A stretch of DNA of 63,996 nt, counting the filler, from Perkinsus olseni (Eukaryota), in the NCBI GenBank assembly GCA_013115125.1. It is 3 parts of 3 records of this genome, joined end to end, with 100 filler letters (N's around TTAATTAATTAA, not from the genome) between each part and the next. Parts side by side here need not be neighbours in the genome. Positions count along the whole stretch, not along the records: positions 1 to 22,649 come from JABANN010000534.1; 2 more parts are not named here. The stretch is one strand, 5' to 3'. The translations under genes and the position numbers were made by a program. Shown here in pieces: positions 1 to 45,482 of this stretch. The number at the start of each line of letters is the position of its first letter. Position 1 is the first letter of the stretch. The notes under the pieces are model-generated. The model was not told the DNA's origin. It saw only the letters and a list, made by a program, of their open reading frames with translations, and did not search any database.

Positions 1-193
1 TTTTAAAATTGCTAAAGTGTTTAAAGTGGATGAAAACTTTTTTAAAACAAACTTCGGTTTTCCAGGCCCTTTTGAATCAAACGAAAAAACATTTTATTTG
101 CTCGGGAAAAGGTGTAGTTCACGCTGCGTTCAGGCTCAAATTTGCACCTTTCGCGATTCTGGCTCTCGGCGTGAAAATCGAGAGAAACGAAGG

Positions 194-837: not shown

Positions 838-3302
838 GTTCACCTGGTGAACTTCACCAGGTGCTGGGTAGTCTTAAAGATGATGTTACAGTTGGCTGCT
901 GGGAAGCTGTTGTACTGTACAACTTGTACAGAGCGGCTGCAGCGCGTCCAGCTTCAACAGTAGCCAGTTAGGGCTACTATATTACTAGGAAATTCCTAGT
1001 AGGAATAGATGAGAGGCCATCCGACTATGAATAGTCTGCAGTCAGCCGAGGAAACTGTAACGCTGCTCCAACCTCTCCGCCACCCTCTCTTCCAACCTCG
1101 ATTGAACCTTCGGCATAACGATCCCCGCAATGGGTTTTTGGCCACCTCCGATTCTCGAATAGTGGAAGGTCACTTTTTCGATGAGTGTAAATTTTCACCT
1201 AACTCGAAGCCGAGGATGAGGGGAGATTTCCTTGAGGACCTATAGCTGAAGTCGATTCGGCCGCATCAGCCGGGGTTTTTCTCCGGCCTAGAGCAGCTCA
1301 CGTTAGAGTCTAACGTGAGCTGCTCTAGGCCGTTAGACCTGCTAACGGTAAGACGGCAGCGGACGAGCGGGCGCATTTGATGGACCCCAATCATGGGGTC
1401 TCGGCGAGACCGTCTCGCGTGTCACAAGCCGCTAGTAACGAGTCGCCCTCGAGATTTATTTCATTGAGTCCAGCGTGCTCCAAGCGTACTCACATAGCCC
1501 CGGGACGGAATGCAGCGAGTGAGAAACGTAACCGACCGACTAGGCTCACTAGCCTAGTAGACTCAGACTAGCGAGTGAGCCTGGCTCAGACTCAGAGTCT
1601 GCGACTCTAACCGATAGAAGAAATACTCCAGTAGCGACGACCCGGAGTCGCCGACCCGTCATTCGAGTGCACTTCTCAAGTCGGGACTCTCAACTTGAGA
1701 GGTCCGAAGTTTGGACTTCAAGCTTAACTAGAACAAGCATACTCAGTGGCATTGAGTCAGTGCGTCCTACTGTGAGTCCACAATGCGGACCTTATGTCTG
1801 GGAAGTGATTCGATCACGGACTCTGTATCGCTCAGACACTGAGTATAATTGGGCGCAGAGGTAGTTGTCGACTCAATGACGACACTGTTGCTTACACTTT
1901 CTTCGTCCGACTGGACTGAAGAACGCTCTTGGGAAGCGGTCGGCCCCTGTGAACGCGCAGAAGTTGGTACACAAAGCGCAAATGCTACGGCGGAATACAT
2001 AATTGGCAACTCTGCAGTGTTAGGAAATAGCTTTTGAGTGAAAGACTTTTACCCAAAGTTTCACGCCACCAGGCCCTTGAAGCAACACTTGCGACGTCAC
2101 GACCTCAAGTCGCGGACGTGTCAGTGACACGGTGTCACTCGCAGGCTACGAGTCGCAGCTAAAGAATCCCTAGCAGCACTTGAGCAGTAGGGATCACCTC
2201 TTGTAAGAAGACCAGCCGAGTTTCCCTGCCAAGACGCCCAGGACGGCCTGAGGAGAAGTGCGGATGACATACTGCGAAAGGCCAACGTCGTTGACTCAAC
2301 GTAACCTGCGCGCTAGATAGTTCTTGTGGAATTCTTCGGGCCGTAGCAGCAAAAAAAATTTATTGGAAGAGTGCGAACGCTCATGAAGCTGGGTTCCTGA
2401 ATCGGGTGAAGCTTTCACGCCCACCTTGGCCGCACTCCCGAGCTTCCGATACAATGGGAAGAAGCACTGGTCGAGAAGTTTAGTGTACCTACGTGGCCCA
2501 CTACTGCGTCATCCTAGCCGCAGGCTCTAACTCACTCTTGCGAGTTCATCTTCAGTGAAGATTCTTCACTCCTTGACTCTCACTGGAGTCCTGTGACAGG
2601 ACCGACGACCTTGCCTCGAAGGTTCGATAATATCGAAGTCCGATGATGCCAGCCCAAATCATGACGCCACGTCCTCCTTGTTGACGCTTGGACCGACTCG
2701 GACAAGCGGCACCGTCCATAATCCACCTATTCTTATTAGAGAATAAGATGATTACACAGGGTCCTACACATGGCCTTATAGGGCCCTCAGGAGCCTGTAA
2801 TCAACCATGCGGGCCTGTCAGGACGGGGTCCTGACAACTGTTGCTACTGTCCAACGTCCAACGTGCAACGTTGCTTTGAGCAACTTGCTTACAACATTTG
2901 TAGCGACTAGTTTCCGAATGGAAAGGTCATCGGGAATCTGAAAGGTTATATTCTGCCAGCCTCTGGTGGCCAACTTGTTCTCTTCAGAGTAGTCCTTTAT
3001 CCCTTTGCAGCTGCGGATCGAGGCCTTCAACTCTCTTTCGTACTCAGGTGAATGGTACAGGTCACAGTGTAGCGGTGGACGCTCCACAGAGAACTCTGAG
3101 AATGCATGATGATTTCCACAACTACGAACTTTAAGTGCGGGGCCTCACTCTGAGTTGTGATATCTGAGAACATGTGGTGCGCGTCGAGTTCGGCGTCGGT
3201 TCCGTGCATCTCAAGTTGAGATTCTCAACTGTACCATCCGTTCGAGGTAGATCTCTCGAATAGGGATCGGTCGGCGGTATCTTCGAAATTCGAAGTTCGA
3301 AT
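838..3302. mobile_element. Cluster of hAT-type transposon excision footprints (no element remaining)
   Basis: Exact 22-nt scars A-X-h'-rc(X)-a'-X-H at 838-859, 909-930, 985-1006, 2117-2138, 2548-2569, 3208-3229 and 3281-3302, plus a 24-bp-arm palindrome at 1284-1332. Confidence 0.75.
1284..1332. repeat. Perfect palindrome, 24-bp arms, 1-nt centre
   Basis: cggcctagagcagctcacgttaga G tctaacgtgagctgctctaggccg; cgttaga is repeated immediately after (1331-1337). Confidence 0.95.
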
Positions 3303-4167
3303 ACCATGGAGAGTGTTGTCATCCAGCCTGGATGACATTGTCATCATGATTCAGGCTGGGTGTTGCGTTAGTTCAATCATTCAGCTTGGAGTCAAGGATA
3401 CTACCCACGGTGGTACGTTGGTGCGCCAATTATCCGAGTTAGCTCAAGTCATGGTGGTCGACGCCACGCACAAACTACCCCAAGGGTTTATGAGCATGCT
3501 GTGAGGCCCGCACACGCCAGATCTTCTAACCGATTTCGCAAATCCTCTCTATCCTTGAAAGCAGTAGTCGACCTGATCGAAGAAGGTTTCGCGTGCTGCC
3601 TCGCCTGCTGCCTCGCCAGGGTGGCCATTTTGGAAAAGATATAAAACGTGACCTAGATTCATCCAAATACAAAGATGAAGCCTCTCCCCAATATCATATG
3701 TGTTCCATGGGGCAAGGCGCCTGCCTGTCGTTACATGAGTCACTAGCAGTAACGCCCTACAGTGACTCACTACAGTTGAGGTAGTGAGTGTGAGGACTGA
3801 ACTGTGACTACTGATAACTTCCGAATATATGATTTGTTTGTAGACAAACGTTAGATCCAGGTGATAGTCCTCACGAGAACTATATCATATATGTAATAGC
3901 AGGAGTTACTCCTGCTATATAGTATATAGATACTCCTGAGGAGTACGAAGTGATAATGCTTTAGTCACATCGTACTTGAACAAGAGATTTCCCTACAAAT
4001 AGCTTCACTTCCATAACACAACCGAGTACTTAGTGAGATACTTCATTCCAATCATGGAAGTTACTGAGCTTCATCTCAGAATCAACAAACATGTCGATCA
4101 TCTATGATAGCTTTACAAAAGTCATAACCACTCGGCAACACGCAGCTCTGTCTTATACAGTGCTACC

Positions 4168-5565
4168 TCAGGGGAGGATGGGGGTTACCGTAGTGTCACC
4201 AGCGGGTGGGCTGGTAACCACAGCAGATTCAGTAGTAGACTCCATCATAGGGCCTTCAGTAGTAGTAGACTCCATCATAGGGCCTTCAGTAGTAGTAGAC
4301 TCCATCATAGGTCCTTCAGTAGTAGTAGACTCCATCATAGGGCCTTCAGTAGTAGTAGACTCCATCATAGGGCCTTCAGTAGTAGTAGGCTGGATAGGTC
4401 CTTCCGTCTTAGGCGTATCCGGTTTAGTGGTATCACTGTGAGGGTACGGCGTAGTAGCGGTGAGGACGGAGTGATCGAAGCTGAGCTCAATCGTCGAATC
4501 ATCAACCCGGTAGGTGTCGTCGACGGTGTACATCGGGCCGTAGTCGCCGAAGACGCAAAAGCCGCCGCAGCCTCTCTCGATCTTTGCCGTAGTGGACTGC
4601 ATACCGCGTTGAACTCCCCTCCATTGAAGGATGAATGGAAGGCCGTGGGCGAGAGGCTTCACACGGTATCCCCGCATATAACCGGAATGCTTCCTCATGG
4701 CGAGGAGGACATCCCCTGAAGTTACCCTCACGGGATCTCTTCTCTCGGGGTGATCGGCGTAGTACCAAGTCTTGTACTTTCCGTCGAAGACAACACAGTG
4801 GAGCCTCTCATCGCCGAACTGATGCATCAAATACCACGCGCCATCGCCACCAGCGGACCCGAAGCACGGAACAGCTGTCTGACCCCACGGAAGATAAATG
4901 TTAGCCCGGGCCTTTGCCGTCAAAGTGACGTGACGATAATCCTCGTCGTGGCCATGATCGTATTGCTCCGGCCTTGGCGTGGTTGTCGTTGCCTCGTCCA
5001 TCGAGTGATTCCCACCGGCCATGTATGGTTCTACTGGAAGGGGACGGAAATAGTAGGCGCTGATGTAAACATTGCCGACACCGTTAAACATCTTCACCGT
5101 CGGGTTGTACCCGAACCAGTGGCCGAAGGAGCCTCCGTGGACATCAACACTGAGGTAACGGAAATCGTCTTTATTGACGTTGTATTCCTTCGTCTTGGCG
5201 TAAACTGTCACGTCGGTAGCAACGCTGCCGTACTCGTCCAAGTTGAAGTCACTGGAGTAAATACCAAATTTGGCAGTCTTGCGGGTATCGAAGAAGTCAC
5301 CCAGCATAATGTCAGTTATATCGCCGACGTCACCCAGGGCCCCCGACATTAAATCCGTGACCTCATGATGGACGCCGCCCATACCCTGATGGTATAGATG
5401 ATACAACATCTGCAGAGGGTTCAACAGATCGTGGCCGTGGTAATCATCGTCGCCGGTGGGAGGTTGAGGCATCTTCGTGGGCAGGATGGACTCTACGGAG
5501 GTGTTATGGTCCTCAGCAGCGGCCTGCCACAGACCAACGTAGAGAAGAGTAGAACGGAACATCAT
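4168..5565 (-). CDS. Intronless secreted protein of unknown function with C-terminal Thr-rich mucin-like repeats (465 aa)
   Basis: Long ORF with signal-peptide-like start MMFRSTLLYVGLWQAAA, an aromatic/Gly-rich core and a (TTTEGPMMES)x5 tail; no C-terminal TM. Confidence 0.8.
   Translation of the reverse strand: MMFRSTLLYVGLWQAAAEDHNTSVESILPTKMPQPPTGDDDYHGHDLLNPLQMLYHLYHQGMGGVHHEVTDLMSGALGDVGDITDIMLGDFFDTRKTAKFGIYSSDFNLDEYGSVATDVTVYAKTKEYNVNKDDFRYLSVDVHGGSFGHWFGYNPTVKMFNGVGNVYISAYYFRPLPVEPYMAGGNHSMDEATTTTPRPEQYDHGHDEDYRHVTLTAKARANIYLPWGQTAVPCFGSAGGDGAWYLMHQFGDERLHCVVFDGKYKTWYYADHPERRDPVRVTSGDVLLAMRKHSGYMRGYRVKPLAHGLPFILQWRGVQRGMQSTTAKIERGCGGFCVFGDYGPMYTVDDTYRVDDSTIELSFDHSVLTATTPYPHSDTTKPDTPKTEGPIQPTTTEGPMMESTTTEGPMMESTTTEGPMMESTTTEGPMMESTTTEGPMMESTTESAVVTSPPAGDTTVTPILP
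4228..4387. repeat. 30-bp coding tandem repeat, about 5 copies
   Basis: Unit ttcagtagtagtagactccatcatagggcc, near-identical copies. Confidence 0.95.
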
Positions 5566-5792
5566 GTGAAATATCTAAAAGCCACAAAGATTATGCACTT
5601 AAGTCGCAGAAATACAGTATGCCCTTCGCACAGAGTACGATTAGCGAGCCTCAGCCCATGAGGAAGCTGACTACAAATACTTGGGAGCAATCTTCAAGCT
5701 CTTTATTCCGGCGGTTTCGGATACTCGTATACTCGCTCGCCCCTTCAGCTTCGCACTCCCGCGAAACGCACGGTGGCCAGTCAGCCCTTCTC

Positions 5793-6424
5793 GGGCCTAT
5801 TTCAAAAGTCTCTTTAAAGAGGACTTCTTAAAGTTCTTCAGCGTGAAACGGTTGGATTTTTGTTAATCCGAGTTCAAAAGGCCGCCTTAATAACCTGAAG
5901 AAGGCTTCCTTTATCCATCTGCTTCCTACGGGCTAAGAAGCACTCCTTTAAGAACGCTTCATGAGGCAAAAATCACCCGATAAACCTCTCAAGAAGCTCA
6001 AGAAGCTTTAACTTGTTTCAAAAGGCGGTTTTTCTCGAGCCTTGCAGCTTAAGAAGCTTAACCTCCTCGAGAGGAGGTTATGGGGGGGATTTTTCGCTTC
6101 GCTACGCTCCCGACTTAGCGATAATTCCACAGTCACTTAAACTTGCTTCCTCCTTCGACCTTAAACCTTCTTTCCCAGTTCAAAGAAGTTCAACGCCTCC
6201 ATAAATTCACGCGGTTTCCAACGCGGGTTCGATTCCCAGCCAGGACACCCATTTTTTGATGAATTTTATGGCTTTAGAAGCTCAATAAGGCTTATTAAGG
6301 TATAAGGAGTCAGCCTTAAAGATGGAAAATCTCTTGAAACAGGCTGTGCTTCTTGAACAATTTCTTATAAGAGGTTCTTATACCTCAAGAAGTGCTTCTT
6401 TAGCGAGACTTTTGAAATAGGCCC
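5793..6424. mobile_element. Non-autonomous MITE, PIF/Harbinger (Tourist)-like
   Basis: Perfect 20-bp TIRs gggcctatttcaaaagtctc (5793-5812) / gagacttttgaaataggccc (6405-6424), extending imperfectly to ~37 bp. 3-bp TSD ctc at 5790-5792 and 6425-6427. AT-rich non-coding interior with aagaagct-type repeats. Confidence 0.85.
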
Positions 6425-6552
6425 CTCAGGTCGGAGCGAGCTGCATGTGGCCAGTGCGGCGCGAGCGGCTTGGCGACCGCCACGCTGGTGTTGGAAACTC
6501 CAAGCATGGTGGTCGCAGAGGCCATATTGGTGACTGATGCCATCAGTACCTC

Positions 6553-7030
6553 ATTTGATCTGTACAAGAGCATCGACTTGTGTCACATACACAAGTTGTG
6601 TGGTGTGGTAGATAAGTCTGTGGATGGGATACGTTTACGGAATAGGCGTGACGGTGCTCACGATGTACGATTGGAAAAACCCTCAAGGCCTGCCGACCGA
6701 CAAGTTCGCTCTCGGGGTGAGCTTACTAACTGTACCTCTCAAGTAAGGTTGGGCCACCGTTCGCAGGTACCCTTGTATGGCACGAACGCAGCTGGTGTGC
6801 AAATAACGTATTTTAAGCTTATTGACATGGGCGCTGACCCCAAGGGGAACGGATCTTTCGCGGGATACTCCTACGACTCTCAGCCGATGCTGCAAGAACA
6901 GGTCGACTTAGCCATCAACCAGAGCTTAGGCGGTCTCATGTGCTGGCACCTGGGGTCGGATCTTCCGCCCGAGGACACGCGTTCCCTCACCTACGCTATC
7001 AAGCAAAAGCTGAAACCCGGGCCTCGACGA
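6553..7030 (+). pseudogene. GH18 chitinase C-terminal remnant (or partial intron-containing gene)
   Basis: Motifs SIDLCH, VPLYG and YSYDSQPMLQEQVDLAINQSLGGLMCWHLGSD match the GH18 C-terminal pattern (YD....K....LGG.M.W.l..D). No DxDxE catalytic motif or N-terminus found upstream. Confidence 0.65.
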
Positions 7031-7264
7031 GACCCTCATCGCGAGGGAACTGCTCAAGGAGAGTACTCTTTACGTCATATCACACTTTTGTTCCGATTCT
7101 GTGAGTCTTGAAAGTAGTTTGTTGAATCGCTTATAGTCATATCAAGGCATCACCAACGTATTTCAACTGAAGTATTTGTTGTTAGGAACAGTCAACCTTA
7201 CTATTAGTATATGACAGAGCTGAGGCCTGAGAATGGTATTCTTAGTGCTGTCTTCCTTTGTCTT

Positions 7265-7342
7265 GCCGTTAGCTATGCGGTATACACAGTAGTAACTTAC
7301 TACTGTGTATACCGCATAGCTAACGGCTTACTACTAGTAAGC
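7265..7342. repeat. Perfect 31-bp-arm palindrome fused to an 8-bp-arm palindrome (two-sided hairpin footprint)
   Basis: gccgttagctatgcggtatacacagtagtaa C ttactactgtgtataccgcatagctaacggc (7265-7327) overlaps gcttacta C tagtaagc (7326-7342). Implied 8-bp target gtagtaag. Confidence 0.9.
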
Positions 7343-9852
7343 ATAAGTTAAGGTTTCCTGTGACACTGTTTGTCTTTGTGTTACGATCAGTGCCGGTGCT
7401 CTACATCTTGGTCACCAGAACTACGAAATGCATTATAACACTGAAAGAAAAAGTAAGCTATCTTCGCAATTCCATATTTTACCAAGCAGTAGATTACCAA
7501 TGGTGGTGTTTTCCAATATGGACTAAGTTGAGGCTGTGGCGAAGAGTGCCGTGGCCTGTATCACGTTCCTCGGTGATATCCCTCTCAGTGGATCGGTGAT
7601 CGATTGAGACGTTCCTTAATACACCGAGCAGTACACGGTACAGTTAGCCTCGTCTTCGTACTCAAAGGGCTCCGGCTTGAACTCTTCAGCTCAAAGAAGT
7701 TGTTCTCTTCGATCGTGGGGTACACTCCCTCGACCCGGCAGCCAGGTCCATAGCTAATGGCGCGGCTGGTCTAGTCGGTCGTCGTCCCAACTCTTAGCAC
7801 GTACTGTAGTCACCCCTCTTGAAGCCGCTTCCGGCTACGTTGACTAATCTGAGCTCTAGAGTCACCACCTGACAATACCCGACACGGACCCTACAATACG
7901 TTTCATGCAGCCATAGCTGTCTAGCGATATTCGTGCGCATCGTAGCGGTCAGGTGGTTGACTTCGTCAACTTAACGAAGTCGACATGGGACATTATGCAG
8001 TTAGAAGTCATCTCATGCGATCAATTGGTCCATAATAGTATCTTCGAACGTCACAGGAAAGTGCGACGACAGCCGCGCTCGGCGGAGCGGGATGGATCGC
8101 AATGGTATGGCTCGCGAACAGGAACCTCTAGTTTCAGCTCGGCAGCATTCGGGGACACCTAGTTCTGGTGACACGGAGAGGCATACGTGCTGCTGCTGCT
8201 GCTGAAACAGAGTGTACTACGCCCAGTGTAGTGTTCTGTTCGCCGTCCTCCCATGCTTCAGCCTCTTCGTATCCTGTCCCACTTTTCCTGAAAACATCGG
8301 TATTACTCGGCCACATCGATGCACATTCCGAAGCACCAAAACGTGACCGCTGGTGACGTGATGCCTCCTCAAGTCACCCTTCGAGGGACACTCCACTTCC
8401 AGATGACAATGCATGGATACCTGCCACTGGTAGGCTACGAGCATGAACCACTTGGAGCGGGTCTCCCTCTCCGCCCTTGGTCTCAACCAAGTGTCGAGGA
8501 ACAACACCGATCGGTACAGGCCGTCCACGCGTAGAAAAAGCAGTGATAGTGTGAAGTGTGACGTCACTGTCGAGTCGTCTGCTCTTCCATAGTGTCAGTC
8601 GCATATTTCTAGTACACATGATGGCGATACCTGGGTATAACTCTCTGGGTGCCACGAGCGTCTATAGATGAATCACTATGGCAACCCCTCATCATCATCG
8701 TAGGCACATACTACATTCTTTTCGCGGCCGAGTCCGGAGAAACTGCGAGACAGCTTTCACGTACAAATAGCCGAACGATCGATTCCTGTTTCGCTCAGCT
8801 AACAGCTGAATTGGCTGTTGAGCTTAATCAGCGCCGGAGTCTTCGTCTCGTCGCTCTGATGGCACACTATGCCTCGAAGTGGCCGTGCAGTCCAGCTCAC
8901 GGTGATGAAGTATACTGGTTAATTCGCCCACTGTCATGCATCCTCTGAGAAGGATCTTTGATACTAGTTAGTATCGATCAGCCGAGTTTCGTATACACAT
9001 GTCTCTCACCTCTCTTATTTGCGCAGCTCTCATCGGCAGTGTTACCGGCCAAGGCACGGTCGTGGGTATCAAACAGGAGAGAATACCATTTCAAAACGGA
9101 AGGACTGGAGCTACCTTCAGTTCCCCGATAGGTAAGTAATTGAGTGCTAATCATTTTGTTGACGTTCGGCTCCTGTTTCTAGGTACTCTGACGCACATTC
9201 AGACGCTCCAACTCAGACGCTCGGATCAAGACGTGTTTGACCGAGACGGGCTTCGCTTCGCTTCGATTGCCGTGGCTGACGATGGTTCAGAACTGCTCGC
9301 CGTCTCCAGTGACCAGAGAGGGTGAGTCCCAGCGGATGTCCTCGCTCGGAGAGGCTTGTGTGCCTGTGCGCTGCTCGTTATCAGAGGTTTCGTTACCCTG
9401 GCCATGCGACCGACTGCTGGCGATCAATATGATATAACTACCGCAAGAGCATATCCGCTGGTTGATCCTGATGGAAACCGCGTGAATGTGTCCTCCACGA
9501 TAAGTGAGCTACTCTCGACGTGGGCCTCTTCATCACGATAGAGCGGTTTTTCAGCTATATCGGTATACGATTGTTCGCGCGTTCCTGGCGATAAGCTGGG
9601 ACGCCGAACTCTCAGGGCATATTCAGTACGAGAGCTCGTGCCTTGGCCTCGCTTCCTCTCTACCGTTCCGACCAAGCGTTGGGTGACCCAACTTGGGTCA
9701 CCCTGCGGTCACCCGGGGCTGCTTCTGGCGGACCTGCCGAATGTGCAGCTGACCCGCGAAGGTAGCTTACCCCGCCGGACATCGATGCACATCGCTCGGG
9801 GGAATTTAATCCGCTGAGAATTTCGCATTGGTCGCGGACTCTTTTGAGTTAG

Positions 9853-11268
9853 ATGGCGGGGCTACTCCGACGTCTCTCATATTGTACTCGAGCGTACTAG
9901 TAGTACGGTACTATCTCAGGCATGGCGGTCAACGGTAGATATCGTCCCGGAGGCCGAGGAGATTTCACTGTCGCTTACCTGGCGAACCCCGTCTTTCCTC
10001 AGACTCTTGACGTTCGCAGGTGAGAGAAGAAGAGTATTGGGACAATTTATTGGATATATGATGTCAATTTTCTTCTTCCGGAATATATTCTATTTCGGCT
10101 CCAGCAAGGTGGTTCTCCTCTCATACCGCTGCATGATGGTCATTAGGTTCCGCAGAGGCGTCAGGACGAGAAGGAGCACTGCAGTGGACGTCACTGAGCT
10201 CAACCAGTGGTGTGGCTTTTATCTCGCGCCTCAGGCGACGATAGCTCACCTGGGTACTCTGAGAATGCAACTTGGAATTGTCTGTATCTATGCTTTCAGG
10301 GCCGTGTGGAGACTTGCTCGCAATCTGCCAGTGGTTCCCTGATGAGACCCCTGGCCCCAACCCAAGACGGGCTGCTGTACCGGTATGGGTATATACTGGA
10401 AATACTTTCTATACATTTTTTATTGAGGTAAAATGAACATTAACCTCATATGGAAAACTTCTTTCATTGCCGATCATCATCGCCCAAAGTTTTGGCATCC
10501 TTTTCCTCCGCAACCTAGAAATCATCTCAGTCCACAGCATTTGGTATGTTCTCAGAATGGCACTTACCAATTACCCTACGCGGTTCGACCCTGTCGTTTT
10601 CAGGCTACCTTTGCTTACAATCCTACCGGTGTGGCGGAGCTCAGCAATGGTGACATAATAATAGCCTCCGTTGTGTATAGTAACCCCACGAAACTAAGAA
10701 TCAGTTATATAACGTCTGATCAGCTGAATAAGGATATTGATGATAGGTTTAGAAGGATAAGCCCGCTGGTTATAGCCGATATAGATCAGGCTGATGGGTA
10801 AGGCCGGTGAGATCTGCTCATCTCGCGTATTTTGCTGGTCTTGCTGATTGATGGTATGTTGGTAGATTCGAAATTGGTGTCCAATCTGGGTTGGCTGTGC
10901 GAGAAGACCCTAGAAGTGGACGGATATTCGTCTACAGCATGAGTGACGACTCGTTTGTAAGGAGGGTCAACGATGATCTCTTGTCGAACACTCACAACTT
11001 GTACTTCCTACTTCTCAGACACCAGGGAGAACCTTGCTCACCACCTTTGAGTGGGAGCCTATTAGGAATCCACGATCGTAGGTATTCCCTACGCGACGTC
11101 GTCCACGCCGATGGCCTCCTCGGCGTGGCGTCTCGGTCTGATAGCTCCGAGCTGAAGTTGCCCGTAACAGCTATCCTTCGACCAATGGATGGGCTAGTAT
11201 TATGGGTTTTTGTATTATCTTCAGCACATTTCATTTCTACTCACTTTTCATCATCACAGCCGCTCTGA
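9853..11268 (+). pseudogene. Multi-exon 'esterase-like activity of phytase' (phytase-like beta-propeller) family gene, probably degraded
   Basis: Segments YNPTGVAELSNGDIII and NLGLAVREDPRSGRIFVYSMSDDSF resemble the family motifs PTD.A.L..GD.lv and NmEGlAV....G...l.l.SDDNF. GT-AG introns visible. A footprint lies at 9893-9914. Boundaries approximate. Confidence 0.4.
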
Positions 11269-12164
11269 GTGGTCCCCTCAGAACGGATCGCTTCATGCGA
11301 GAGTCACTTGGTGACTAACCTTTTCTCTGTAGCAGTCAGTGCTACAATTTTGGCCGAGGGCAGTTGTTCAGTTGTCGAGTTCATTTGGCAGTCGGTCCGG
11401 TCGGCGTACATAAACAGATAGTGACTCACTAGTCGTCTAACAGGGCCGATCCACTTCCCCGGGACGCACGGTTGTGCCCAAGCCGTTTTATCTTCCAAAT
11501 GCTGCCAAGATACCACATTCTCCGTACTTCGTTTGCCACATTAATCCGCAGCGGGAGAGCAGCGCAGCCGCTCCAGCAACGCTCGTCGAATCTCGCTGTG
11601 CCTCTCCGAGATTTACCAACGAGTTCAGTTTGTAATCAGTTTGAATCGGTTCTAAAATGTGCTTAAAGAAGAGGCGTTTCGATTGACTGCTCAGCAGTCC
11701 TCGGCAGACAGCAGTCGAGCGGTTACACGAGAAGCTGCTGAGGTTGATCGAGAGATCATATCTCGGCGTCAGGTCTCAGGCATAACGCCGCGGATACGAG
11801 TATTATACGGCCCACAAGAATGAGAGGACGGTTTGACGAAGATACGCATAAGTTCTACTCACGACCACTTTACGTTGAACTAGTTGAAGTCCCGAGGCCG
11901 GCCAAAAACTGACCGGCCATAACTGCCAAAAAATTAACGTTGCATAAGAATCGACTCAAAACTGCGTGATCTTTCCGTCCGATCTGGCCTGCTGTCCGAC
12001 TTCCTATGGTGTCATCACTTGAAAGAACGGCAACAGCGTGGCAGATGGCGGTCTACAACAGCACAATCACGAACATGAGGACAGCATGAGGGAGCAGCCG
12101 CGGCGGCGGTGCTCTCAACAGAAGGCACATTGAATGGTATGTGATGATCGTGATGATGATGCTT

Positions 12165-22649: not shown

Positions 22650-22749
22650 NNNNNNNNNNNNNNNNNNNNNNNNNNNNNNNNNNNNNNNNNNNNTTAATTA
22701 ATTAANNNNNNNNNNNNNNNNNNNNNNNNNNNNNNNNNNNNNNNNNNNN
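22650..22749. other. Assembly gap with artificial six-frame stop linker
   Basis: 100-nt block of N containing ttaattaattaa at 22694-22705. Confidence 0.95.
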
Positions 22750-22754
22750 CCGTC

Positions 22755-23345
22755 ATGATTCATGTGTTGGTGCAGTTCACTGGTGTTTCCGTCGCCACCT
22801 TCTTTCAAACATCTATTTTTCTTAAAGCTCGCCTGGGAAGACCAGACATCATGGCCATAACAGTTCAGCTCGTTACGGTGGCTGCGAACGCCGTCGCTTG
22901 CTGTTTTATCGAACGGTCTGGTCGGCGGCCTTTACTACTTAGCAGCTGCCTCGGTATGATGGTTAGCCAACTAGTGATGGGTGCATATTTCTATATGGAC
23001 CGCAATGGAACTGCATCCAATCTGGCCTGGCTCTCTGTGGTGTCGGCTTATCTCTATCAAATCGCCTACGCTTTTGGTAGTGGCCCAGTTCGGTTTATGA
23101 TATCATCGGAGATCTTCCCTGACCAAATCCGTAGCTTCGCAGCAAGCATGTCAGGACTCTTCAACGGGGTGAGCTCGGGCGTGTGTCTCGTCACACTCGA
23201 ATATGCAATATCGGGTACGTCTATCGAGGCGGTCTTTTGGTTCTTCGCCTGCATCGCAGCGATGCTTTTCACTTTTGTCTATCTTATGGTCCCCGAAACC
23301 AAAGGAAAGAGCTTGGATGAGGTCCGCGCTCTCTTCGTACATTAG
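22755..23345 (+). CDS. Sugar porter (MFS) copy 1, 5' part lost in the gap
   Basis: ERSGRRPLL, GPVRF.ISSEIFP and VPETKGK motifs. Confidence 0.9.
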   Translation: MIHVLVQFTGVSVATFFQTSIFLKARLGRPDIMAITVQLVTVAANAVACCFIERSGRRPLLLSSCLGMMVSQLVMGAYFYMDRNGTASNLAWLSVVSAYLYQIAYAFGSGPVRFMISSEIFPDQIRSFAASMSGLFNGVSSGVCLVTLEYAISGTSIEAVFWFFACIAAMLFTFVYLMVPETKGKSLDEVRALFVH

Positions 23346-24150
23346 CCTCTGCCTTCTTTCGTGTAGTTTTAGTTATAATTTGATTTGTTGATTCTCCCAG
23401 CTGAGGCCCACGATTCTCGGATAAGCGGTGTTGTAGAGCTTGGCCTGGACATGTACTTTTATAGGGCTCAAGGAGTGCCGTTCTGCTAGACTTCATCTCA
23501 GTGGAACCAGTTTGGTTGGACGTTCCATTTTGGATCCGTGCGTTGGAGGGTGTCCCATAGCTTCTCACCTAACTTCCAGAGCAAGTTTTCGTAAGTGATT
23601 GATTGTTCGATTACGATATGGTGAGCGGACATAGTTGGTGGAGAGGCGTTTCATTAATGTATTGGTCGAGTTTCGTTCCGATATTCGTCGTCGGCTCCCC
23701 GCAGCAGCTTGCGAGGGAATTTTTCTGAGAGGTCAAAACCTCGGCATTGTGGTACTTAGACGGTTCAGAAGCAGCCCCAGGGGTGCTCGACCAGCCCAGC
23801 GCATCCCGCATGGGGAGATAGACTGCTACAAATAGCTGACTCTGTCCTAGATGGACAGCTGCGATCGGTCTTAAATTCGAACTCAAAGACGCAGACACAT
23901 GCTCACCACCTGGAAAACCATCGTTAGCGCTGCTCTACTTGATATGCCCGATGAGCAGCAATTCGATGCCGCGTTACACTGATTGTCATGCGGTTGTTCA
24001 CCGACCATTCGCACAATGGTGTCCCCATGGTGCACGCAGGCCCCAGGCAGTTCGAGACTTTTCTTCGAAAAACTCGTGCAACGTTTCTTCGCGCCACAAT
24101 CCCCAATCTCAATGCAATCGTGTTGCCCAAGTAATAGATACCTTTTATGA

Positions 24151-25689
24151 ATGGCAGAGCGCCTCGTGAAAAGACCCATCAGCCATCGACTCTCCACTAT
24201 CGTAGTAAAATACCTCGGTAAGGATGCATGTGCTGTCCTCTCTTGTTTTGCCTGCCTATTGGCTCCCATCATAGCAGGAGTTGGCCTTGGCTTCACAAGT
24301 CCAACGATAGACACTATGAGTAACACGGTGATATCGCCCACCACTGGTCAGCACATCCCCATAGGCTCCAGCTCTAACCTCTATGTATTCCATTCCTCTG
24401 CTATCTCTAGTTTCTTTAGTGCTGTCTTCACTCTTGGTGCATTGGTCGGGTCTTTGGCTGGTGGGCCTATTGCGGAGCCTATTGGTCGTCGCTACGCAAT
24501 GATGATATCCTCCCCCATCAGTACGATATCCTACCTTATCATAGCCCTGGCGAATAGTGCAGCTTCACTCGTGGTCTTTCGATTCATAGCTGGTGTGGGT
24601 ATGGGCATCGGCTCCTTCGTAACCGGTGTTTATATTAGTGAGATTGCTCCTACTCACCGTCGCGGTGTGCTTGGTGCAGGCAATCAACTCTGCTTTGCTT
24701 TGGGTGCTTGTGTGGTTTATGCCATTGGCATGGGAACTCGAACTGGTGCTGACTCGTCTGACCCTGCTGCAACTTCTACCACTTTCTGTGACTGGAGGGC
24801 TCTATCTTACTACTGCATGATACCGAGTGGGCTCTTGTTTTTTACCATGTTTCTGTCACCCGAAACCCCACGTTGGTTGGCTACGCGGGGTAGACTGGAT
24901 GAGGCAAAGAACTCTCTTGTCGCAGTCCGTGGTTTACCAATAGATGACAAGCAACTGGCCGCTGAAGTGAAGGTGCTGGCAGATGTTTCAGCGAGTCGTA
25001 GTGGTGAGAATGGCAGTAACAACATGCCATTCAAGGAAAGACTAAAGCTACTCTTTTCATGCAAACGTCAATGTATCATCGCCTGTGCTGTTCATTCTTT
25101 TGCTCAGTTTATAGGTCTCAATGCCCTTGCGTTCTATCAAACTAGTTTCTTCCAGCTTGCTGGACTGAGCAATGCTGATTTGATGTCTCTAACTGTGCAA
25201 CTCGTTACGGCTGTATCGAATCTTGTTGCATGCTTCTTGGTTGATCGTCTAGGCAGACGACCATTGCTTTTGTGGAGTGGCCTTGGTATGGCTGTAGGGC
25301 AGTTTCTATTGGGTTTATTCTTCTATTTAGATCGTGATGGTACAGCTACTAATCTATCATGGTTACCTGTATTAGCCTGTTATATTGTTCAAATAGCAAT
25401 GGCCACGGGAGTCGGTCCAATACGATGGATGCTCTCAGCCGAGCTCTTTCCCGATGAGGTCCGTGGTCTGGCATCTAGCATGGCTACGACTGTTAACTGG
25501 TTGTCAGCTTTCATACTAATCGAGTGCCTCAACCCCGCAGTGAACGGTACTTCCTTACAAGCCGTCTTTTGGTTCTTCTCTTGCGTTGGCGTTGCTCTTG
25601 CTGTATTTGTGTGGTTCTTTGTACCCGAGACGAAGGGGAAAACCTTGGAAGAAATACAGAAGATATTCGCCCGTTCCTCCACCCATTGA
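24151..25689 (+). CDS. Sugar porter (MFS, GLUT8/Tret1/ERD6-like) copy 2
   Basis: 12-TM pattern; GRR, YISEIAP..RG, PETPRWL, DRLGRR, PETKGK; intronless. Confidence 0.95.
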   Translation: MAERLVKRPISHRLSTIVVKYLGKDACAVLSCFACLLAPIIAGVGLGFTSPTIDTMSNTVISPTTGQHIPIGSSSNLYVFHSSAISSFFSAVFTLGALVGSLAGGPIAEPIGRRYAMMISSPISTISYLIIALANSAASLVVFRFIAGVGMGIGSFVTGVYISEIAPTHRRGVLGAGNQLCFALGACVVYAIGMGTRTGADSSDPAATSTTFCDWRALSYYCMIPSGLLFFTMFLSPETPRWLATRGRLDEAKNSLVAVRGLPIDDKQLAAEVKVLADVSASRSGENGSNNMPFKERLKLLFSCKRQCIIACAVHSFAQFIGLNALAFYQTSFFQLAGLSNADLMSLTVQLVTAVSNLVACFLVDRLGRRPLLLWSGLGMAVGQFLLGLFFYLDRDGTATNLSWLPVLACYIVQIAMATGVGPIRWMLSAELFPDEVRGLASSMATTVNWLSAFILIECLNPAVNGTSLQAVFWFFSCVGVALAVFVWFFVPETKGKTLEEIQKIFARSSTH

Positions 25690-26149
25690 TACTCTTTCGC
25701 GGCCTATAGCCGTATACGATTCTAACGACCTTAAGCCTCCGACCGAGTGTCTAGGTTTCTTTATGGCGAGCAACTGTTGAGTCAAAGCAGACGAGGATGA
25801 GGGGTATCGTTTCTTCCCAGATAGCATTTCCTCTTGAGTAGGACAAAGGATGACAGCTGGGATATACAGAAGTTATGTAGTAATGGGGGCTGGTCGTTGG
25901 TGATTGCTCTTCGTCTGCCAGATGCCTTTTAGAGAGAATTGGGAATGGTCATAGTGTTTTCGGTCATGGTAGTGGTAGTCGACAGTATTGGCATTGCTAA
26001 CTGGGGTTGCTTCATGCTTGTAATAGATCTAATCTCGCATCAAGTCTCGGTGCCCTCTGGCCCGTAGCGTTAGCGATTGGACCAGAGCCGTATCAATGCC
26101 GTCGGAACTCGATGGTCTTGGTTGCGCTATTGGATACTGTTGTAGTTGA

Positions 26150-27646
26150 ATGAGTGTTAACCCTTCAACCCATGGATCAGACGTCCGTGCCATACTCAGT
26201 GTTTTGGCGTGCCTCCTAGCGCCAATGACGATGGGAATAGGGTTGGGATTCACTGGCCCGACTATTGATACGATGCGTAATACAGTCGAAGACACTGATG
26301 GTGAAGGGACCATCGGCATTGGATCCAATTCTAACTTGTTTGTTTTCTCTTCCACAACTATATCGAGTCTATTTAGCGCTGCCCTAGTCCTAGGGGCCTT
26401 TATAGGATCTCTCATGGGTGGTCCTCTGGGGGAGCTCACAGGCAGGCGATTAGCGTTGTTAATTGCATCACCTATGAGCTCTATAGCCTACCTAGCTATA
26501 GCCTTATCATCGAGCCCTGCGGTATTAATAATAGCACGGTTTGTTGCAGGGCTCTCTCTGGGTCTAGCTTCTTTTGTTGCACCAGTTTATATAGGAGAGG
26601 TCTCTCCAACTCGGATTCGTGGAAGGCTCGGAGCTCTTTTCCAGCTATTCATAGCTGGAGGCATGCTCTACGTCTACGCGATGGGTCTGGCGTTCCGTAC
26701 GGACGCTGAATCGACTGACCCCCGTGCGACGTCTTCGACATTTTGTCAATGGAGGCGCGTTGCTTATATTTCCATGATACCTTCATTGCTGCTCTTCCTT
26801 GCGATGTACATGGCGTATCCTAGCCCTCGCTGGTTGGCAACGAAAGGTCGAATTGAAGAGGCGAAGGGAGCTCTATGTCGACTCCGTGGCTTGCCAACTT
26901 CTTCAAGAACTGAGGAAATCTTGGCTCTGGAGCGGGTAGCGGAGGGTCAGGCAGAGCCACGCGGCGTCGTGGAGAAGTTCAAGGTCATCATGGAATGCAA
27001 GCGACAAGCTGTGATAGCGGTGGTGATACACTTCCTAACCCAGCTGTCGGGTCTCAACGCTCTGGCCTTCTATCTAACATCAATATTTATGAAAGCAGGC
27101 CTATCGAATGCTGACCTGATGTCGCTCATAGTCCAGCTGGTCACCATGTTCACTACTCTGCCTGCAAGTTACCTTGTAGAGACTCTCGGCCGAAGAGTAT
27201 TGCTCCTGACTGGCTGTCTTATGATGGGTGTAGCTCAGTTCCTTAGTGCTTTGTTCTTCTACCTTGATCGTGATAGTGGGAGCTCCTCATCCTCAATGGG
27301 CTGGTTGGTCCTTTTGGGGGTGTATGCTTACCAGATATCCTTCGCTTGGGGCGTTGGCCCCATTAGATGGATACTAGTCGCTGAACTGTTCCCTTGTAGA
27401 GCCCGCGGGGTGGCAGCAAGCTTGGCCGCAACTGCCAATTGGATAAGTGCTTTCATCTTCATACTCGCCTTAGACCCTCTCGTGGAGGCTACGTCTTTAT
27501 ATGTCACATTCTGGTCTTTCGCGGTTGCCAGCTGGGCACTGGTGGTATTCGTATGGTTCATGGTACCCGAGACTAAAGGTAAGACTTTTGAAGAGATCCA
27601 GGAGCATTTTAAGACAAGGCAAACATCGTTAGAGCAATGTCAGTAA
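26150..27646 (+). CDS. Sugar porter (MFS) copy 3
   Basis: Same motifs, with PSPRWL variant. Confidence 0.95.
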   Translation: MSVNPSTHGSDVRAILSVLACLLAPMTMGIGLGFTGPTIDTMRNTVEDTDGEGTIGIGSNSNLFVFSSTTISSLFSAALVLGAFIGSLMGGPLGELTGRRLALLIASPMSSIAYLAIALSSSPAVLIIARFVAGLSLGLASFVAPVYIGEVSPTRIRGRLGALFQLFIAGGMLYVYAMGLAFRTDAESTDPRATSSTFCQWRRVAYISMIPSLLLFLAMYMAYPSPRWLATKGRIEEAKGALCRLRGLPTSSRTEEILALERVAEGQAEPRGVVEKFKVIMECKRQAVIAVVIHFLTQLSGLNALAFYLTSIFMKAGLSNADLMSLIVQLVTMFTTLPASYLVETLGRRVLLLTGCLMMGVAQFLSALFFYLDRDSGSSSSSMGWLVLLGVYAYQISFAWGVGPIRWILVAELFPCRARGVAASLAATANWISAFIFILALDPLVEATSLYVTFWSFAVASWALVVFVWFMVPETKGKTFEEIQEHFKTRQTSLEQCQ

Positions 27647-27771
27647 CAGTGCTTATAGTGCGTACCATTAGTTTTTTGCGCAATCGATTTTTTAACCTTT
27701 CGTAGACTCGAGTTGGAGAAGAGGGATTTGTCGTCCGTTCAGTCATCGTCCTGTCATCTTATGCCTTCACC

Positions 27772-29241
27772 ATGTACTATCGCTATCAAGGCTGTGACGA
27801 CATCGTTGCTATTGTGTGTGTGATTGGCTCACTATTAGCACCGTTCGTGGCTGGTATAGGACTTGGTTTCACCAGTCCCACTATCGATACTATGAGGAAT
27901 ACTGTCCTCACAACTCGAGGCCAACGGGTCGACATAGGCCTTGATTCGAATCTTTACGTTTTCAAAGACCAAGATTTTGTTGCTAGTGCCTTTAGTGCTG
28001 CCCTGACTGCCGGGGCGTGTCTTGGAGCTCTCATCGCCGGTCCTGTGGCTGACCAGATCGGAAGGCGATTGGCGTTGATGTTGAACTCACCTTTGGGTAT
28101 TGTCGCCTATCTCACCATTGGTCTCAGCAGCAATGTCTATCTCCTCATCGCAGGTAGGTTCATAGCAGGCCTACCGGTCGGGATGGGTCCATCAGTAGCA
28201 TCTGTCTACATCAGTGAGGTGGCACCTACAAGACTGAGGGGCGTCCTAGGAGCGTGTAACGAGATGGCCTCTGTACTCGGCATTACAGGGGTATATGCTG
28301 CTGGTTTGCTGTTCAGAACTGATGGAGGTAGTTCTGACCCATTAGCGAGTGATGATACATTCTGTGACTGGAGATTGACGTCCTTCGTCTGCATTGCCCC
28401 ATGCGCCCTCTTGGCTATCGCTATGTATTTTGCTTTGGAGTCCCCGAGGTGGTTGGCGTGTAAGAGGCACATGGTAGAGGCTCAGAACGTTCTGTGTCAG
28501 TTGCGGGGCTGCCGATCAGCAGGTGACCCTCGCATAGCATCTGAGATGCCTGAGCTTACTAATGCTGATCATGGCACCCGCTTTGTGGTCCGACTAAGGG
28601 AGTTGCTGAGCTGCCGGAAGCAGTTACTTGTCGCTATAGTCATTGAAGCACTCACTCAGCTCAGTGGTCTCGACGTCATAGCGTTCTATTTGGTAACAAT
28701 CTTCCAGGACGCTCACTTGAGTTCTCCTGATCTGATGGCAGTAACAGTACAGCTAGCTACTGCAATCGCCATAATTCCGGCGTGCTTGTTAGTGGAACGC
28801 TCAGGACGCCGTCCCCTCCTTTTGCTGAGCAGTATCGTTATGTGTCTCAATCTAGCGCTCATCGGTGCTTTCTTTTATGTCGGTAAAGAGTCCCTGGCTT
28901 GGTTATCCGTAGTCGGTGCGTATGGCTACAACTTGGGTTATGCATTTGGTGTTGGGCCAATTCGATGGCTCCTAGTAGCTGAGATATTCCCAGATCGTTG
29001 TAGGAGCCTTGCAGCTGGCCTAGCGACTATGGCCAGCTGGTTGACTCTGTTTATAATCATTCTCGTAGTGGATCGTGCCACCGAGGCCACTTCGCGTCAA
29101 GCTCTATTCTGGTTCTTCGCTGCTATCAGCGCCGTCATCACTGGGTTTGTCTGGTTGGCAGTGCCGGAAACGAAAGGAAGAAGCTTCGAGGAAATTAAAA
29201 GGTTGTTCTACCCCATTCCCACCATCAACAGTGTCGTTTGA
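27772..29241 (+). CDS. Sugar porter (MFS) copy 4
   Basis: Same motifs; ESPRWL, PETKGR. Confidence 0.95.
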   Translation: MYYRYQGCDDIVAIVCVIGSLLAPFVAGIGLGFTSPTIDTMRNTVLTTRGQRVDIGLDSNLYVFKDQDFVASAFSAALTAGACLGALIAGPVADQIGRRLALMLNSPLGIVAYLTIGLSSNVYLLIAGRFIAGLPVGMGPSVASVYISEVAPTRLRGVLGACNEMASVLGITGVYAAGLLFRTDGGSSDPLASDDTFCDWRLTSFVCIAPCALLAIAMYFALESPRWLACKRHMVEAQNVLCQLRGCRSAGDPRIASEMPELTNADHGTRFVVRLRELLSCRKQLLVAIVIEALTQLSGLDVIAFYLVTIFQDAHLSSPDLMAVTVQLATAIAIIPACLLVERSGRRPLLLLSSIVMCLNLALIGAFFYVGKESLAWLSVVGAYGYNLGYAFGVGPIRWLLVAEIFPDRCRSLAAGLATMASWLTLFIIILVVDRATEATSRQALFWFFAAISAVITGFVWLAVPETKGRSFEEIKRLFYPIPTINSVV

Positions 29242-29431
29242 CAATCATGAATATAATTTCTCATCGTCTCGTCGTGATAAGACGGTTGAACTAAGCTGTA
29301 TAGATCCCTCACGTAGTGGTTTGTAGCACGACATGTTGAGCTGGTTGGTTCCGGACACAAAGGCCGTGTTGTCAGGGAGCTAGGACTCCTGGCGTTGCTC
29401 CGATCGTTTTTCGTGTAGTATATATCTTTCT

Positions 29432-30904
29432 ATGTTCTCTTCTCCTGCTGCACTACTTCCTATATCGGGAGACTCCTTCGCTGTGTTCTGTGCGTGTGCA
29501 TCGATGTTGGGGCCACTGACCGTCGGTTTAGGTCTGGGCTTCACAGGCTCCACCATTGATACGATGCGCAACTCGGTCTTAGCCCCTGATGGTACTCGGA
29601 TAGACATCGGCCCGGAGTCTAATCTTCACGTATTCAACTCAACAACTGCGTCAAGCCTCTTCGGTGCTGCCCTCACCCTTGGTGCTCTCGTCGGTACACT
29701 TTCCGGAGGCCCCGTCGCCGAGGCTACTGGTCGTCGCCTCGCCTTGCTCATCACCTCCCCCCTCAGTGTTGGGGCATACCTCGCCATAGCCCTTGGACAC
29801 AGCCCTTATCTGCTTGTCGCTGCGCGATTGGTCGCCGGTTTCTCTATGGGCATCTGCTCGTTCGTATCATCCGTGTACATTAGTGAGGTCTCTCCGAATA
29901 AGCTACGCGGCTTCCTCGGTGCCTGCACTCAGCTGATGATGGCTGGTGGTATCACTCTTGTGTATGCTATTTGCCTGGGAGCGAGGACCAGTGCCGGGTC
30001 CCCCGATCCCTTGGCTACATCCTCAACCTTCTGCAACTGGCGACTAGTAGCCTTCATCTGCATCATCCCTCCCAGTTTATTGTTCTGCCTGATGTACTTC
30101 GCGGTTGAGTCTCCGAGATGGCTCGCCACTCGAGGCCGTACTGATGAAGCACGCGCTGTTCTTGTGCGCCTTAGAGGCGCTAGCGAGGACGACAAAAGTC
30201 TTATGGCCGAAATGGATGCCCTCGAGGCCATTGTAGCATCTCACGACAAGAAGGACGGCATCAAAGCCCGACTATCGGTGTTGTGGTCTTGTAAAAGGCA
30301 AGCGGTAATTGCGGTGGCTTTGAACGGCCTGACGCAGTTTACCGGGCTCAACGCTCTTGCATTCTATCAAACGACATTCTTCCTCGAGGCTGGGTTGAAG
30401 GACGCCGACGTTCTCGCCTTGACTGTTCAGCTCTCGACTGTCATAGCTAATGTCGTTGCTTGCTTCTTGATGGACCGTATGGGTAGGAGGCCCCTCCTGA
30501 TCAGTAGCAGTATCGGAATGTGTATAAGCCAGATAATGATAGCAACATTCTTCTACGAGGATCGCGATGGAGGAGATGAAGATCTAGGATGGTTAATCCT
30601 ACTGGGATCATATTGCTATCAGATTACCTACGCATGGGGTGTGGGACCTATCCGCTGGATGGTCGCGGCTGAGTTGTTCCCCGATGAAGCTCGAGGATTA
30701 GCATCAAGCCTCGCCACTACGTCCAATTGGTTCTGCGCTTTCCTTTTTATACTCTTCCTTGATACAGTCATCAACGCAACTTCACTGCAGGCAGTCTTCT
30801 ACTTCTTCGCCTGTGTAGCTGCGGCCATGACAGCCTTTGAGTGGTACATGGTACCAGAGACCAAGGGCAAGACGTTGGAAGAGATTCAGAGTATCTTCTC
30901 CTGA
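29432..30904 (+). CDS. Sugar porter (MFS) copy 5
   Basis: Same motifs. Confidence 0.95.
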   Translation: MFSSPAALLPISGDSFAVFCACASMLGPLTVGLGLGFTGSTIDTMRNSVLAPDGTRIDIGPESNLHVFNSTTASSLFGAALTLGALVGTLSGGPVAEATGRRLALLITSPLSVGAYLAIALGHSPYLLVAARLVAGFSMGICSFVSSVYISEVSPNKLRGFLGACTQLMMAGGITLVYAICLGARTSAGSPDPLATSSTFCNWRLVAFICIIPPSLLFCLMYFAVESPRWLATRGRTDEARAVLVRLRGASEDDKSLMAEMDALEAIVASHDKKDGIKARLSVLWSCKRQAVIAVALNGLTQFTGLNALAFYQTTFFLEAGLKDADVLALTVQLSTVIANVVACFLMDRMGRRPLLISSSIGMCISQIMIATFFYEDRDGGDEDLGWLILLGSYCYQITYAWGVGPIRWMVAAELFPDEARGLASSLATTSNWFCAFLFILFLDTVINATSLQAVFYFFACVAAAMTAFEWYMVPETKGKTLEEIQSIFS

Positions 30905-31776
30905 TTACGTTATGGGCTCCTACTAGTGATTGTACTCGCCTTGTGTTGTTCCTTCAGCTGCCATAGTAGCAGCAAAGCTCTAGTCCCATATATATTATTC
31001 TAGTCACATTCTAGTGTCGAACTCTTGTTTCCCGTTGCTGTGCAAATTGCCCTTCTGTTGTGTACTCAATAAGGCATATGGACGACTTATCGGTCTGACG
31101 AATGGAGTAACAATGCATGGATAACCATGCGGTATGAGTCAGGTGAATGATTTGGAGGAAGGGTTGGGCGGTACTCTTGCATCGTCTCGAGTGGATGTGC
31201 TCAGGACTGCCCCCGGTATCGTGTTGACGCATAGAAGATAATGGGAGAAGAATGTATAAACAATGCATGACAAAAGCTTTGCTTGACTTTTCTCCGTGAG
31301 TATCGCCGCGATACTTGGGTAGTGGTATACGTTAAAGCCGATAGGACGCGATACTATCGCGTCAGTCGAGGCAGCGTCTTGTCCCAAGACCCTTGTGCAT
31401 CGCATAGGACTTTCATACCATTTTAGTCCAGTCCCGTACATCATTCTGTGCTGGTCATCATGACCAGCACAGAATGACCAGGTCATGCCACTAGCCACTA
31501 CAGGGACGCCGTGACGTGGTGGGCGATCTTCATGCACGCAGGCACAGGGTCGCCATTCCCGCTCTGACGCGGCAGGGTATGTTTCTGTTCCGCCGCCCCT
31601 CCTCACGGGAATGCGAATGGTGCTGACTAAAACAATAGACGAACAATAGGTTGATACTTTGACAGTATACTGTTACGTCGCCAATGCCGCGGCAACCGAC
31701 CTGGCATTGCATGCGACTGCACTCTGAACCTCTCAAGAATCATCGTGTCCACACTGTCTTGTCAGTTCTATTAACA

Positions 31777-45382: not shown

Positions 45383-45482
45383 NNNNNNNNNNNNNNNNNN
45401 NNNNNNNNNNNNNNNNNNNNNNNNNNTTAATTAATTAANNNNNNNNNNNNNNNNNNNNNNNNNNNNNNNNNNNNNNNNNNNN
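45383..45482. other. Assembly gap with artificial six-frame stop linker
   Basis: 100-nt block of N with ttaattaattaa at 45427-45438. Confidence 0.95.

Follow-up and report, generated by a model that had tools for sequence, protein, structure and literature searches.

Palindromic 22-nucleotide scars in Perkinsus olseni DNA probably record the excision of hAT-type transposons

A window of 63,996 bases from the genome of Perkinsus olseni (assembly GCA_013115125.1), which is the whole stretch of DNA analyzed here, carries a recurring 22-nucleotide (nt) palindromic structure of fixed architecture. We propose that these 22-mers are probably scars left at donor sites in Perkinsus by hAT-type cut-and-paste DNA transposons. 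Judged from the sequence, a hAT-type excision reading is well supported by the anatomy of the scars, and draws no support from a transposase. Each scar consists of the first seven bases of an 8-mer target, the reverse complement of the entire target, and then target bases two to eight (U[1-7] + rc(U) + U[2-8], which amounts to 22 nt for an 8-mer U). Where the target is written A-X-H, with A and H as single bases and X as six bases, the scar reads A X H' rc(X) A' X H. The window comprises three contigs concatenated through artificial linkers of the form N44-TTAATTAATTAA-N44 at 22650-22749 and 45383-45482, so adjacency over the linkers is not biological.

Twelve exact copies of the 8-mer pattern are present in the window, at 838-859 (target GTTCACCA), 909-930 (GTTGTACA), 985-1006 (CTAGGAAT), 1397-1418 (GGTCTCGC), 2117-2138 (CGTGTCAC), 2548-2569 (ATCTTCAC), 3208-3229 (ATCTCAAC), 3281-3302 (CTTCGAAT), 9678-9699 (GTTGGGTC), 38355-38376 (ACGACAAT, upstream of a hexose-transporter open reading frame (ORF)), 63017-63038 (AGGGATAC) and 63606-63627 (ATAGGAAC). 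A preliminary description of this DNA had reported eight of them (838, 909, 985, 2117, 2548, 3208, 3281 and 9678), together with a one-mismatch scar at 9893 and long-arm scars at 1284 and 7265, and every one of these was recovered. The field is wider than the 838-9914 given there, since four exact copies had been missed (1397, 38355, 63017 and 63606), three of them far outside that range. Adjacent exact scars begin 71 and 76 nt apart between 838 and 985 and 73 nt apart at 3208 and 3281, a regularity that is perhaps due to chance.

Unit length is the most telling property of the pattern. Against the 12 exact copies built on an 8-mer stands a sole exact copy built on a 7-mer (TCTCGAT, 41057-41075), and unit lengths of 5, 6 and 9-19 return no exact match anywhere in the window; the 14 exact matches at unit length 4 are uninformative. 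Across 30 dinucleotide-preserving shuffles of the window, there were no matches in total for lengths 7, 8 and 9, and three in total for length 6. The expectations of the preliminary description, that scars should exceed their frequency in shuffled sequence and that unit length should peak at 8, are both borne out by these counts. A search for the core X-n-rc(X)-n-X, where X is a 6-mer, likewise returned 13 matches, all with 6-1-6-1-6 spacing, and none for any other combination of spacers from 0 to 3.

The palindromes themselves are just as regular. With arms of at least 6, the window holds 67 odd and 12 even palindromes; two of the 12 are the artificial linkers, and the even class as a whole lies at about chance level, from which it follows that the putative hairpins always carried a one-base offset. 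In every one of the 12 exact scars, and in five complex ones, each of the two palindromes is centred on a base complementary to an end base of the target. When palindromic (P) nucleotide additions are tabulated by length, the full 8-nt product alone is enriched (12 observed versus 0.0 per shuffle). Short P-nucleotide footprints are not enriched in the window, as illustrated by the (1,1) class with 0 versus 1.0 per shuffle and the (2,1) class with 1 versus 0.4; the simpler short footprints that the preliminary description suggested looking for are thus at chance level, at least within this window.

Imperfect copies extend the series. Each 22-mer was scored against its own best consensus, with 20 shuffles as control, and the 0-mismatch class contained 11 copies (plus 9678, which is removed by the low-complexity filter) versus 0 per shuffle, the 1-mismatch class 9 versus 0, the 2-mismatch class 13 versus 0.4 and the 3-mismatch class 20 versus 4.5. 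These classes form a decay series, which indicates excision events of many ages. Real scars in the window total roughly 35-50, with about 20-35 mutated copies and six long-arm or filler variants. The one-mismatch scars lie at 1587-1608, 1742-1763, 2138-2159 (abutting scar 2117-2138, with one base in common), 2581-2602 and 40609-40630 (both by consensus scoring), 2870-2891, 9893-9914 (target CGTACTAT, mismatched at the first centre), 63148-63169 and 63782-63803.

The six variants depart from the 22-mer in the length of their arms or in what lies between them. In the long-arm scar 1284-1339 (target CGTTAGAC), the left flank appears to have been unfolded for about 24 nt and joined to the right target copy, such that there is a left palindrome only, with an odd centre at 1308 and an arm of 24. 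The long-arm scar 7265-7342 (GTAGTAAG) fits a left hairpin unfolded for 31 nt (odd palindrome centre 7296, arm 31) and a right hairpin unfolded for 8 nt, with one shared base at the joint. A third long-arm scar, 31441-31487 (TGGTCATG), has arms of 18 and 6 and four shared bases at the joint. The complex scar 3896-3945 (CAGGAGTA) has a left arm of 11, about 12 nt of filler and a right arm of 7, and the filler scar 31299-31363 (GTATCGCG), between two hexose-transporter genes, has arms of 8 and 9 around about 30 nt of filler. The weakest candidate is a short-arm scar at 6577-6602 (CTTGTGTG), with arms of 3 and 6. Five variants (3900, 6577, 7289, 31300 and 31452) have two separate palindromes with the predicted centres. 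A template within the window was sought for the filler of scars 31300 and 3900 and for 2570-2640, and chance 8-10-mers were all that was found.

These features can be set against the hallmarks of hAT transposition (literature is cited here by PMC number). Consistent with the 8-bp target duplication of hAT elements, the unit is 8 in 12 of the 13 exact scars. On either side, the base at the palindrome centre complements the one that would have touched the element, which is how hAT excision footprints are defined (PMC5873905). Among the exact-scar targets, T at position 2 occurs in 8 of 12 and A at position 7 in 8 of 12, which is to say in 16 of 24 half-sites (p=2e-5); five of the 12 fit both positions, and one fits neither. 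Adding the six complex scars brings the half-sites to 21 of 36. The counts in the preliminary description, 8/11 for either position, are correct for its own 11 targets. This bias agrees with the 8-bp target preference of Hermes, 5'-nTnnnnAn-3' (PMC10368747). The 8-bp unit, the complement-centred palindromes and the nTnnnnAn bias, on which the preliminary description had founded its proposal of hAT-type hairpin excision, are therefore all present.

How might one product come to dominate so completely? We infer a derivation from two hairpins. Each insertion would duplicate an 8-bp target AXH. At excision, the transposase would nick one base into each flank, and both flanks would be sealed as hairpins, the left with the strand S-A-X-H'-rc(X)-A'-rc(S) and the right with the strand rc(R)-H'-rc(X)-A-X-H-R. 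The host would then open each hairpin on its 3' side, 8 nt or more away from the tip and not adjacent to it as in plants, leaving two 3' tails that end in H'rc(X)A' and AXH and would be perfectly complementary over 8 bases. Annealing, fill-in and ligation of such tails would give exactly AX-H'-rc(X)-A'-XH. Annealing of this kind would account for the constant unit of 8, for the complementarity of both centres to the target ends and for the dominance of one product. Tails joined elsewhere would yield long-arm and filler variants, and the observed variants fit this same two-hairpin model.

The preliminary description also stated that no transposon remains at the locus. In part this holds: no element in the window combines terminal inverted repeats (TIRs) with an 8-bp duplication. 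It does not hold for positions 1-117 (plus strand), where the contig start truncates a high-copy repeat and leaves its terminal portion; the repeat is AT-rich and has short repeats within it. Sequencing runs from two studies (X1 and X2), along with two further, divergent runs (X7 and X8), place this repeat end in context. Its depth bin stands at about 25x that of single-copy sequence nearby, and many contigs cease to agree beyond 117/118. Other copies of the repeat diverge upstream of about position 80, and among the matches listed the next base is T in most copies. Bases 98-117 have no other copy in the window and gave 0 matches in JGI metagenome contigs. One X1/X2 contig, at single-haplotype depth, joins the repeat end (117/118) to position 3207, one base before scar 3208, and in an alternative X1/X2 contig 2639 follows directly on 2554, which is the first centre of scar 2548. 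The junctions at 3207 and 2554, along with the abutting scars 2117/2138, suggest repeated hits at the same few bases. That the repeat at 1-117 represents a source element is possible but unproven.

Several observations weigh against attributing the scars to hAT excision. Neither strict nor relaxed searches of the 64-kb window revealed a TIR element with an 8-bp duplication; a search of the window for TIRs with 7-9-bp duplications gave nothing at 8 bp and two unconvincing matches at 7 and 9, with 0 from the relaxed version. No transposase domain was detected among the 30 window ORFs scanned against Pfam. The repeat at 1-117 has an end unlike the YARNG terminus of hAT elements, and that end adjoins position 3207, not the 8-mer of scar 3208 itself. 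The long arm is on the left in all four long-arm variants (1284, 3900, 7289 and 31452), which is unexplained and, with n=4, not significant. The host repair route in the two-hairpin derivation is something we infer wholly from the scars, and the nick one base into the flank is a property that Hermes is said to have, reportedly following Zhou et al. in 2004. Finally, hAT elements are not alone in forming flank hairpins: MULEs do so as well, with duplications of 8-9 bp being possible (PMC5499845).

This last point introduces the best placed of the alternatives, in which the scars would derive from another superfamily that forms flank hairpins and 8-bp duplications, be it MULE-like or an undescribed relative of the hAT/MULE/P/Kolobok/Dada elements. 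We consider such an origin unlikely, even though the sole repeat end seen, at 1-117, lacks a hAT-like terminus. MULE duplications are 8-10 bp, usually 9, and MULEs have long TIRs. A unit of 8 is permitted for a MULE, but the 13 exact scars do not vary over the 8-10 range that is typical of MULEs, and the sharp peak at 8 together with the target bias fits hAT better. To our knowledge, no nTnnnnAn preference has been described for the MULE Muta1. While Muta1 shares flank hairpins and 8- or 9-bp duplications with the proposed events, it differs in that its excision is mostly precise, at >90% (PMC5499845). The nTnnnnAn bias and complement-centred palindromes, on the other hand, are documented for hAT elements (PMC10368747, PMC5873905). 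Dada elements, which are distant hAT relatives, have been reported in Perkinsus marinus, but their duplications are 6-7 bp (PMC3706591).

Other element types were considered along the way. A Transib/RAG-type footprint does not fit the 0 matches at unit length 5 and the even palindromes at about chance level. Amoebophrya introners, considered as a related feature, are intron-sized elements with 3-5-nt repeats and are unrelated. Merlin and Tc1-like elements are reportedly linked to Perkinsus. Our literature search brought up no account of hAT elements, or of scars like these, in Perkinsus, though supplementary files might list repeat families.

A transposon need not be invoked if the triplets arose by template switching, whereby a polymerase copies a short stretch, jumps to the complementary strand and back, and so generates a quasi-palindrome mutation. 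Strand-switch events of this sort are able to produce forward-reverse-forward triplets, and no transposon sits at any scar in the window. This route is nonetheless very unlikely: template switching would not fix the unit at 8 (with 0 matches at 5, 6 and 9-19), would not fix the one-base offsets and would not favour T2 and A7. The variants with two separate palindromes and filler, moreover, fit two independent hairpin ends.

Where the scars lie is as striking as their form. Using the 21 scars with at most one mismatch for tests of distribution, 13 are found within 838-3302, which represents 3.9% of the window (p=6e-14), and a further four lie within 63017-63803. Three scars are grouped at 31.3-31.5 kb between transporter genes. 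ORFs of at least 150 amino acids (aa) cover 43% of the window and contain just two of the 21 scars (p=0.001), both of them in one 168-aa ORF without a family match. The preliminary description had envisaged a hit-and-run mutator that erased genes at this locus and spared housekeeping blocks. When the 12 exact scars were collapsed to single 8-mers, no long frame was restored, and the longest stop-free stretch over any site was 408 nt; because reversion restores no ORF, there is no sign of erased genes, and the idea of erasure is not upheld. Survival in neutral DNA combined with short-range reinsertion offers a simpler reading of the distribution than a gene-erasing mutator. Scars would build up in intergenic or gene-poor DNA, where their presence is neutral, and clusters would stem from the tendency of such elements to reinsert nearby.

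The same clustering could be taken as the mark of a domesticated or targeted hAT-like nuclease that breaks DNA without any mobile element. Hairpin-making domesticated hAT transposases do exist, as exemplified by Kat1 (cited in PMC10368747), and no element is left at any scar. A nuclease of this kind is nevertheless highly improbable as the source, because such a scar can arise only if the 8-mer is present twice when the hairpins form, which requires an earlier insertion with target duplication. Furthermore, the targets share nothing beyond the weak nTnnnnAn bias, and the scars are of many ages and occupy unrelated intergenic places.

Independent reads bear on whether the scars exist in the organism at all. 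Contigs built from X1 and X2 match the window at 90-2483, 2461-4062 and 7298-10801 with 0 differences, and so provide, letter for letter and from two studies, the read support that the preliminary description had asked of its scars. One run set may be the window's own sample, in which case independent support comes from the second study and the divergent runs. In the X7/X8 contigs, about a fifth of the sampled words are present, and divergence is a few percent. Their contig over 768-1548 is about 4-5% divergent, with 29 substitutions and only 10 gap letters, and because there are so few gap letters the scars at 838, 909, 985 and 1397 are common to X7/X8. Another X7/X8 contig joins 1307 to 1393 via 26 other letters and has a single copy of the 8-mer CGTTAGAC. 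This is an allele without the long-arm scar 1284-1339. Because three contigs are stitched together in this window, through the linkers at 22650-22749 and 45383-45482, one might suspect that the scars were created in assembly, amplification or sequencing. Such an artefact is scarcely credible given that contigs built independently from two studies' runs reproduce the scars with 0 differences, several scars are common to a divergent strain (X7/X8) and mutated copies form a decay series.

With hAT-type excision as the preferred source of the scars, parallels among known systems become instructive. Ac/Ds elements, as studied in plants, budding yeast and Candida albicans, share with the Perkinsus events an 8-bp duplicated target, the use of microhomology and palindromic P-nucleotide additions that have at their centre the complement of the base beside the element (PMC5873905). 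Their palindrome arms reach up to 20 nt in yeast, whereas in Candida 28 footprint types were recorded in 128 revertants, with the longest P insertions being 3 nt (PMC5873905). Footprints in those systems are heterogeneous and mostly short (PMC5873905), while here the complete inverted 8-mer dominates. In addition, the Perkinsus scars occur naturally and are fixed, with dozens of them in 64 kb. Hermes and hobo share the 8-bp nTnnnnAn target (PMC10368747) and flank hairpins (PMC5499845), but nothing like a Hermes element, TIR or transposase was seen in the window. A more distant parallel is provided by RAG and Transib. The hairpins of these systems are not known to have a one-base offset, and Transib duplications are 5 bp. 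V(D)J coding joints likewise arise from a hairpin-sealed flank that is opened off-centre to give palindromic additions (PMC5499845); the Perkinsus palindromes differ in being odd and built on a unit of 8, with even palindromes at about chance level.

The remaining contents of the window provide a setting for the scars. The most prominent feature is a sugar-transporter array on the plus strand at ~22.7-40.2 kb (22755-40241; Pfam Sugar_tr, E ~1e-92), which contains at least seven genes, one truncated by the contig start. The 3' portions of these genes are 60-93% identical to one another, and two of the spacers carry scars. The transporter at 26150-27646 has 73% identity to a Perkinsus chesapeaki protein and 80% to a protein encoded on a further contig, with other named matches in P. 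olseni and P. marinus. Together with the strand skew, the array could hint at a kinetoplastid source, but these matches to Perkinsus proteins reject it. A Pfam scan also identified two LicD-family ORFs and one S1-domain ORF in the window. A signal-recognition-particle RNA lies on the minus strand at 62489-62768, where the Rfam Plant_SRP model barely reaches its threshold (105.5 bits versus 105), and the next 1.1 kb downstream, in plus-strand terms, hold four scars. No tRNA genes were found in the 63,996-base window.

Nearer to the main cluster, a 633-bp element at 5794-6426 resembles a miniature inverted-repeat transposable element (MITE), with perfect 20-bp TIRs (GGGCCTATTTCAAAAGTCTC) and a 3-bp flanking repeat, CTC. 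It looks like the PIF/Harbinger or Tourist type, with no relation to the 8-bp scars, and its read depth is about 6-10x single copy. Immediately to its right, at 6416-7111 on the plus strand, the sequence weakly matches glycosyl hydrolase family 18 at its C-terminal end (E=0.003, short of the family cut-off); this stretch could be what is left of a gene, or a final exon. A 465-aa ORF on the minus strand at 4168-5565 includes seven 30-nt tandem repeats at 4201-4421 and has no Pfam match; language-model look-alikes, which include aerolysin/ETX_MTX2-type pore-forming proteins, are weak (score 0.85) and serve as a lead only. A multi-exon gene candidate at 8999-11400 begins at 8999 with what resembles a signal peptide and is interrupted by GT-AG introns. 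Some of its segments are at 2-4x depth, which suggests a gene family, and scars 9678 and 9893 would fall in an intron or a decayed section of it.

A bolder extension of the two-hairpin scheme may also be entertained, albeit tentatively and with some doubt. Perkinsid repair of transposase-made hairpin breaks could be almost deterministic, proceeding by far unfolding and annealing via the inverted 8-bp duplication, such that every imprecise hAT excision would leave the same 22-nt barcode. If this were true, the genome would amount to a datable fossil record of normally invisible excisions. That record would show short-range hopping trails, as in the 13 of 21 scars within 2.5 kb, some of them abutting, as well as repeat hits at the same bases. 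It would also point to a host without tip-proximal, Artemis-like hairpin opening or classical end joining. Among the papers listed in a literature search on end joining or Ku70 in Perkinsus, none dealt with Perkinsus, and a P. marinus CRISPR paper held nothing specific on end joining.

The excision marks of cut-and-paste transposons are normally too small and too varied to recognise, and rates of excision and of local hopping are known mainly from experiments. The mark in Perkinsus, with its 14 added bases and constant form, is statistically unmistakable. What is unusual is the uniform, full-length product together with its abundance, through which events that normally go unseen can be counted. 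Excisions could be counted and dated genome-wide, and the hops of elements mapped, by a simple pattern search. Perkinsozoa are the sister group to dinoflagellates, and their DNA repair has been little studied; the scars could report on how these hosts repair hairpin-capped breaks, and would constitute indirect evidence for hAT-type elements in Perkinsus.

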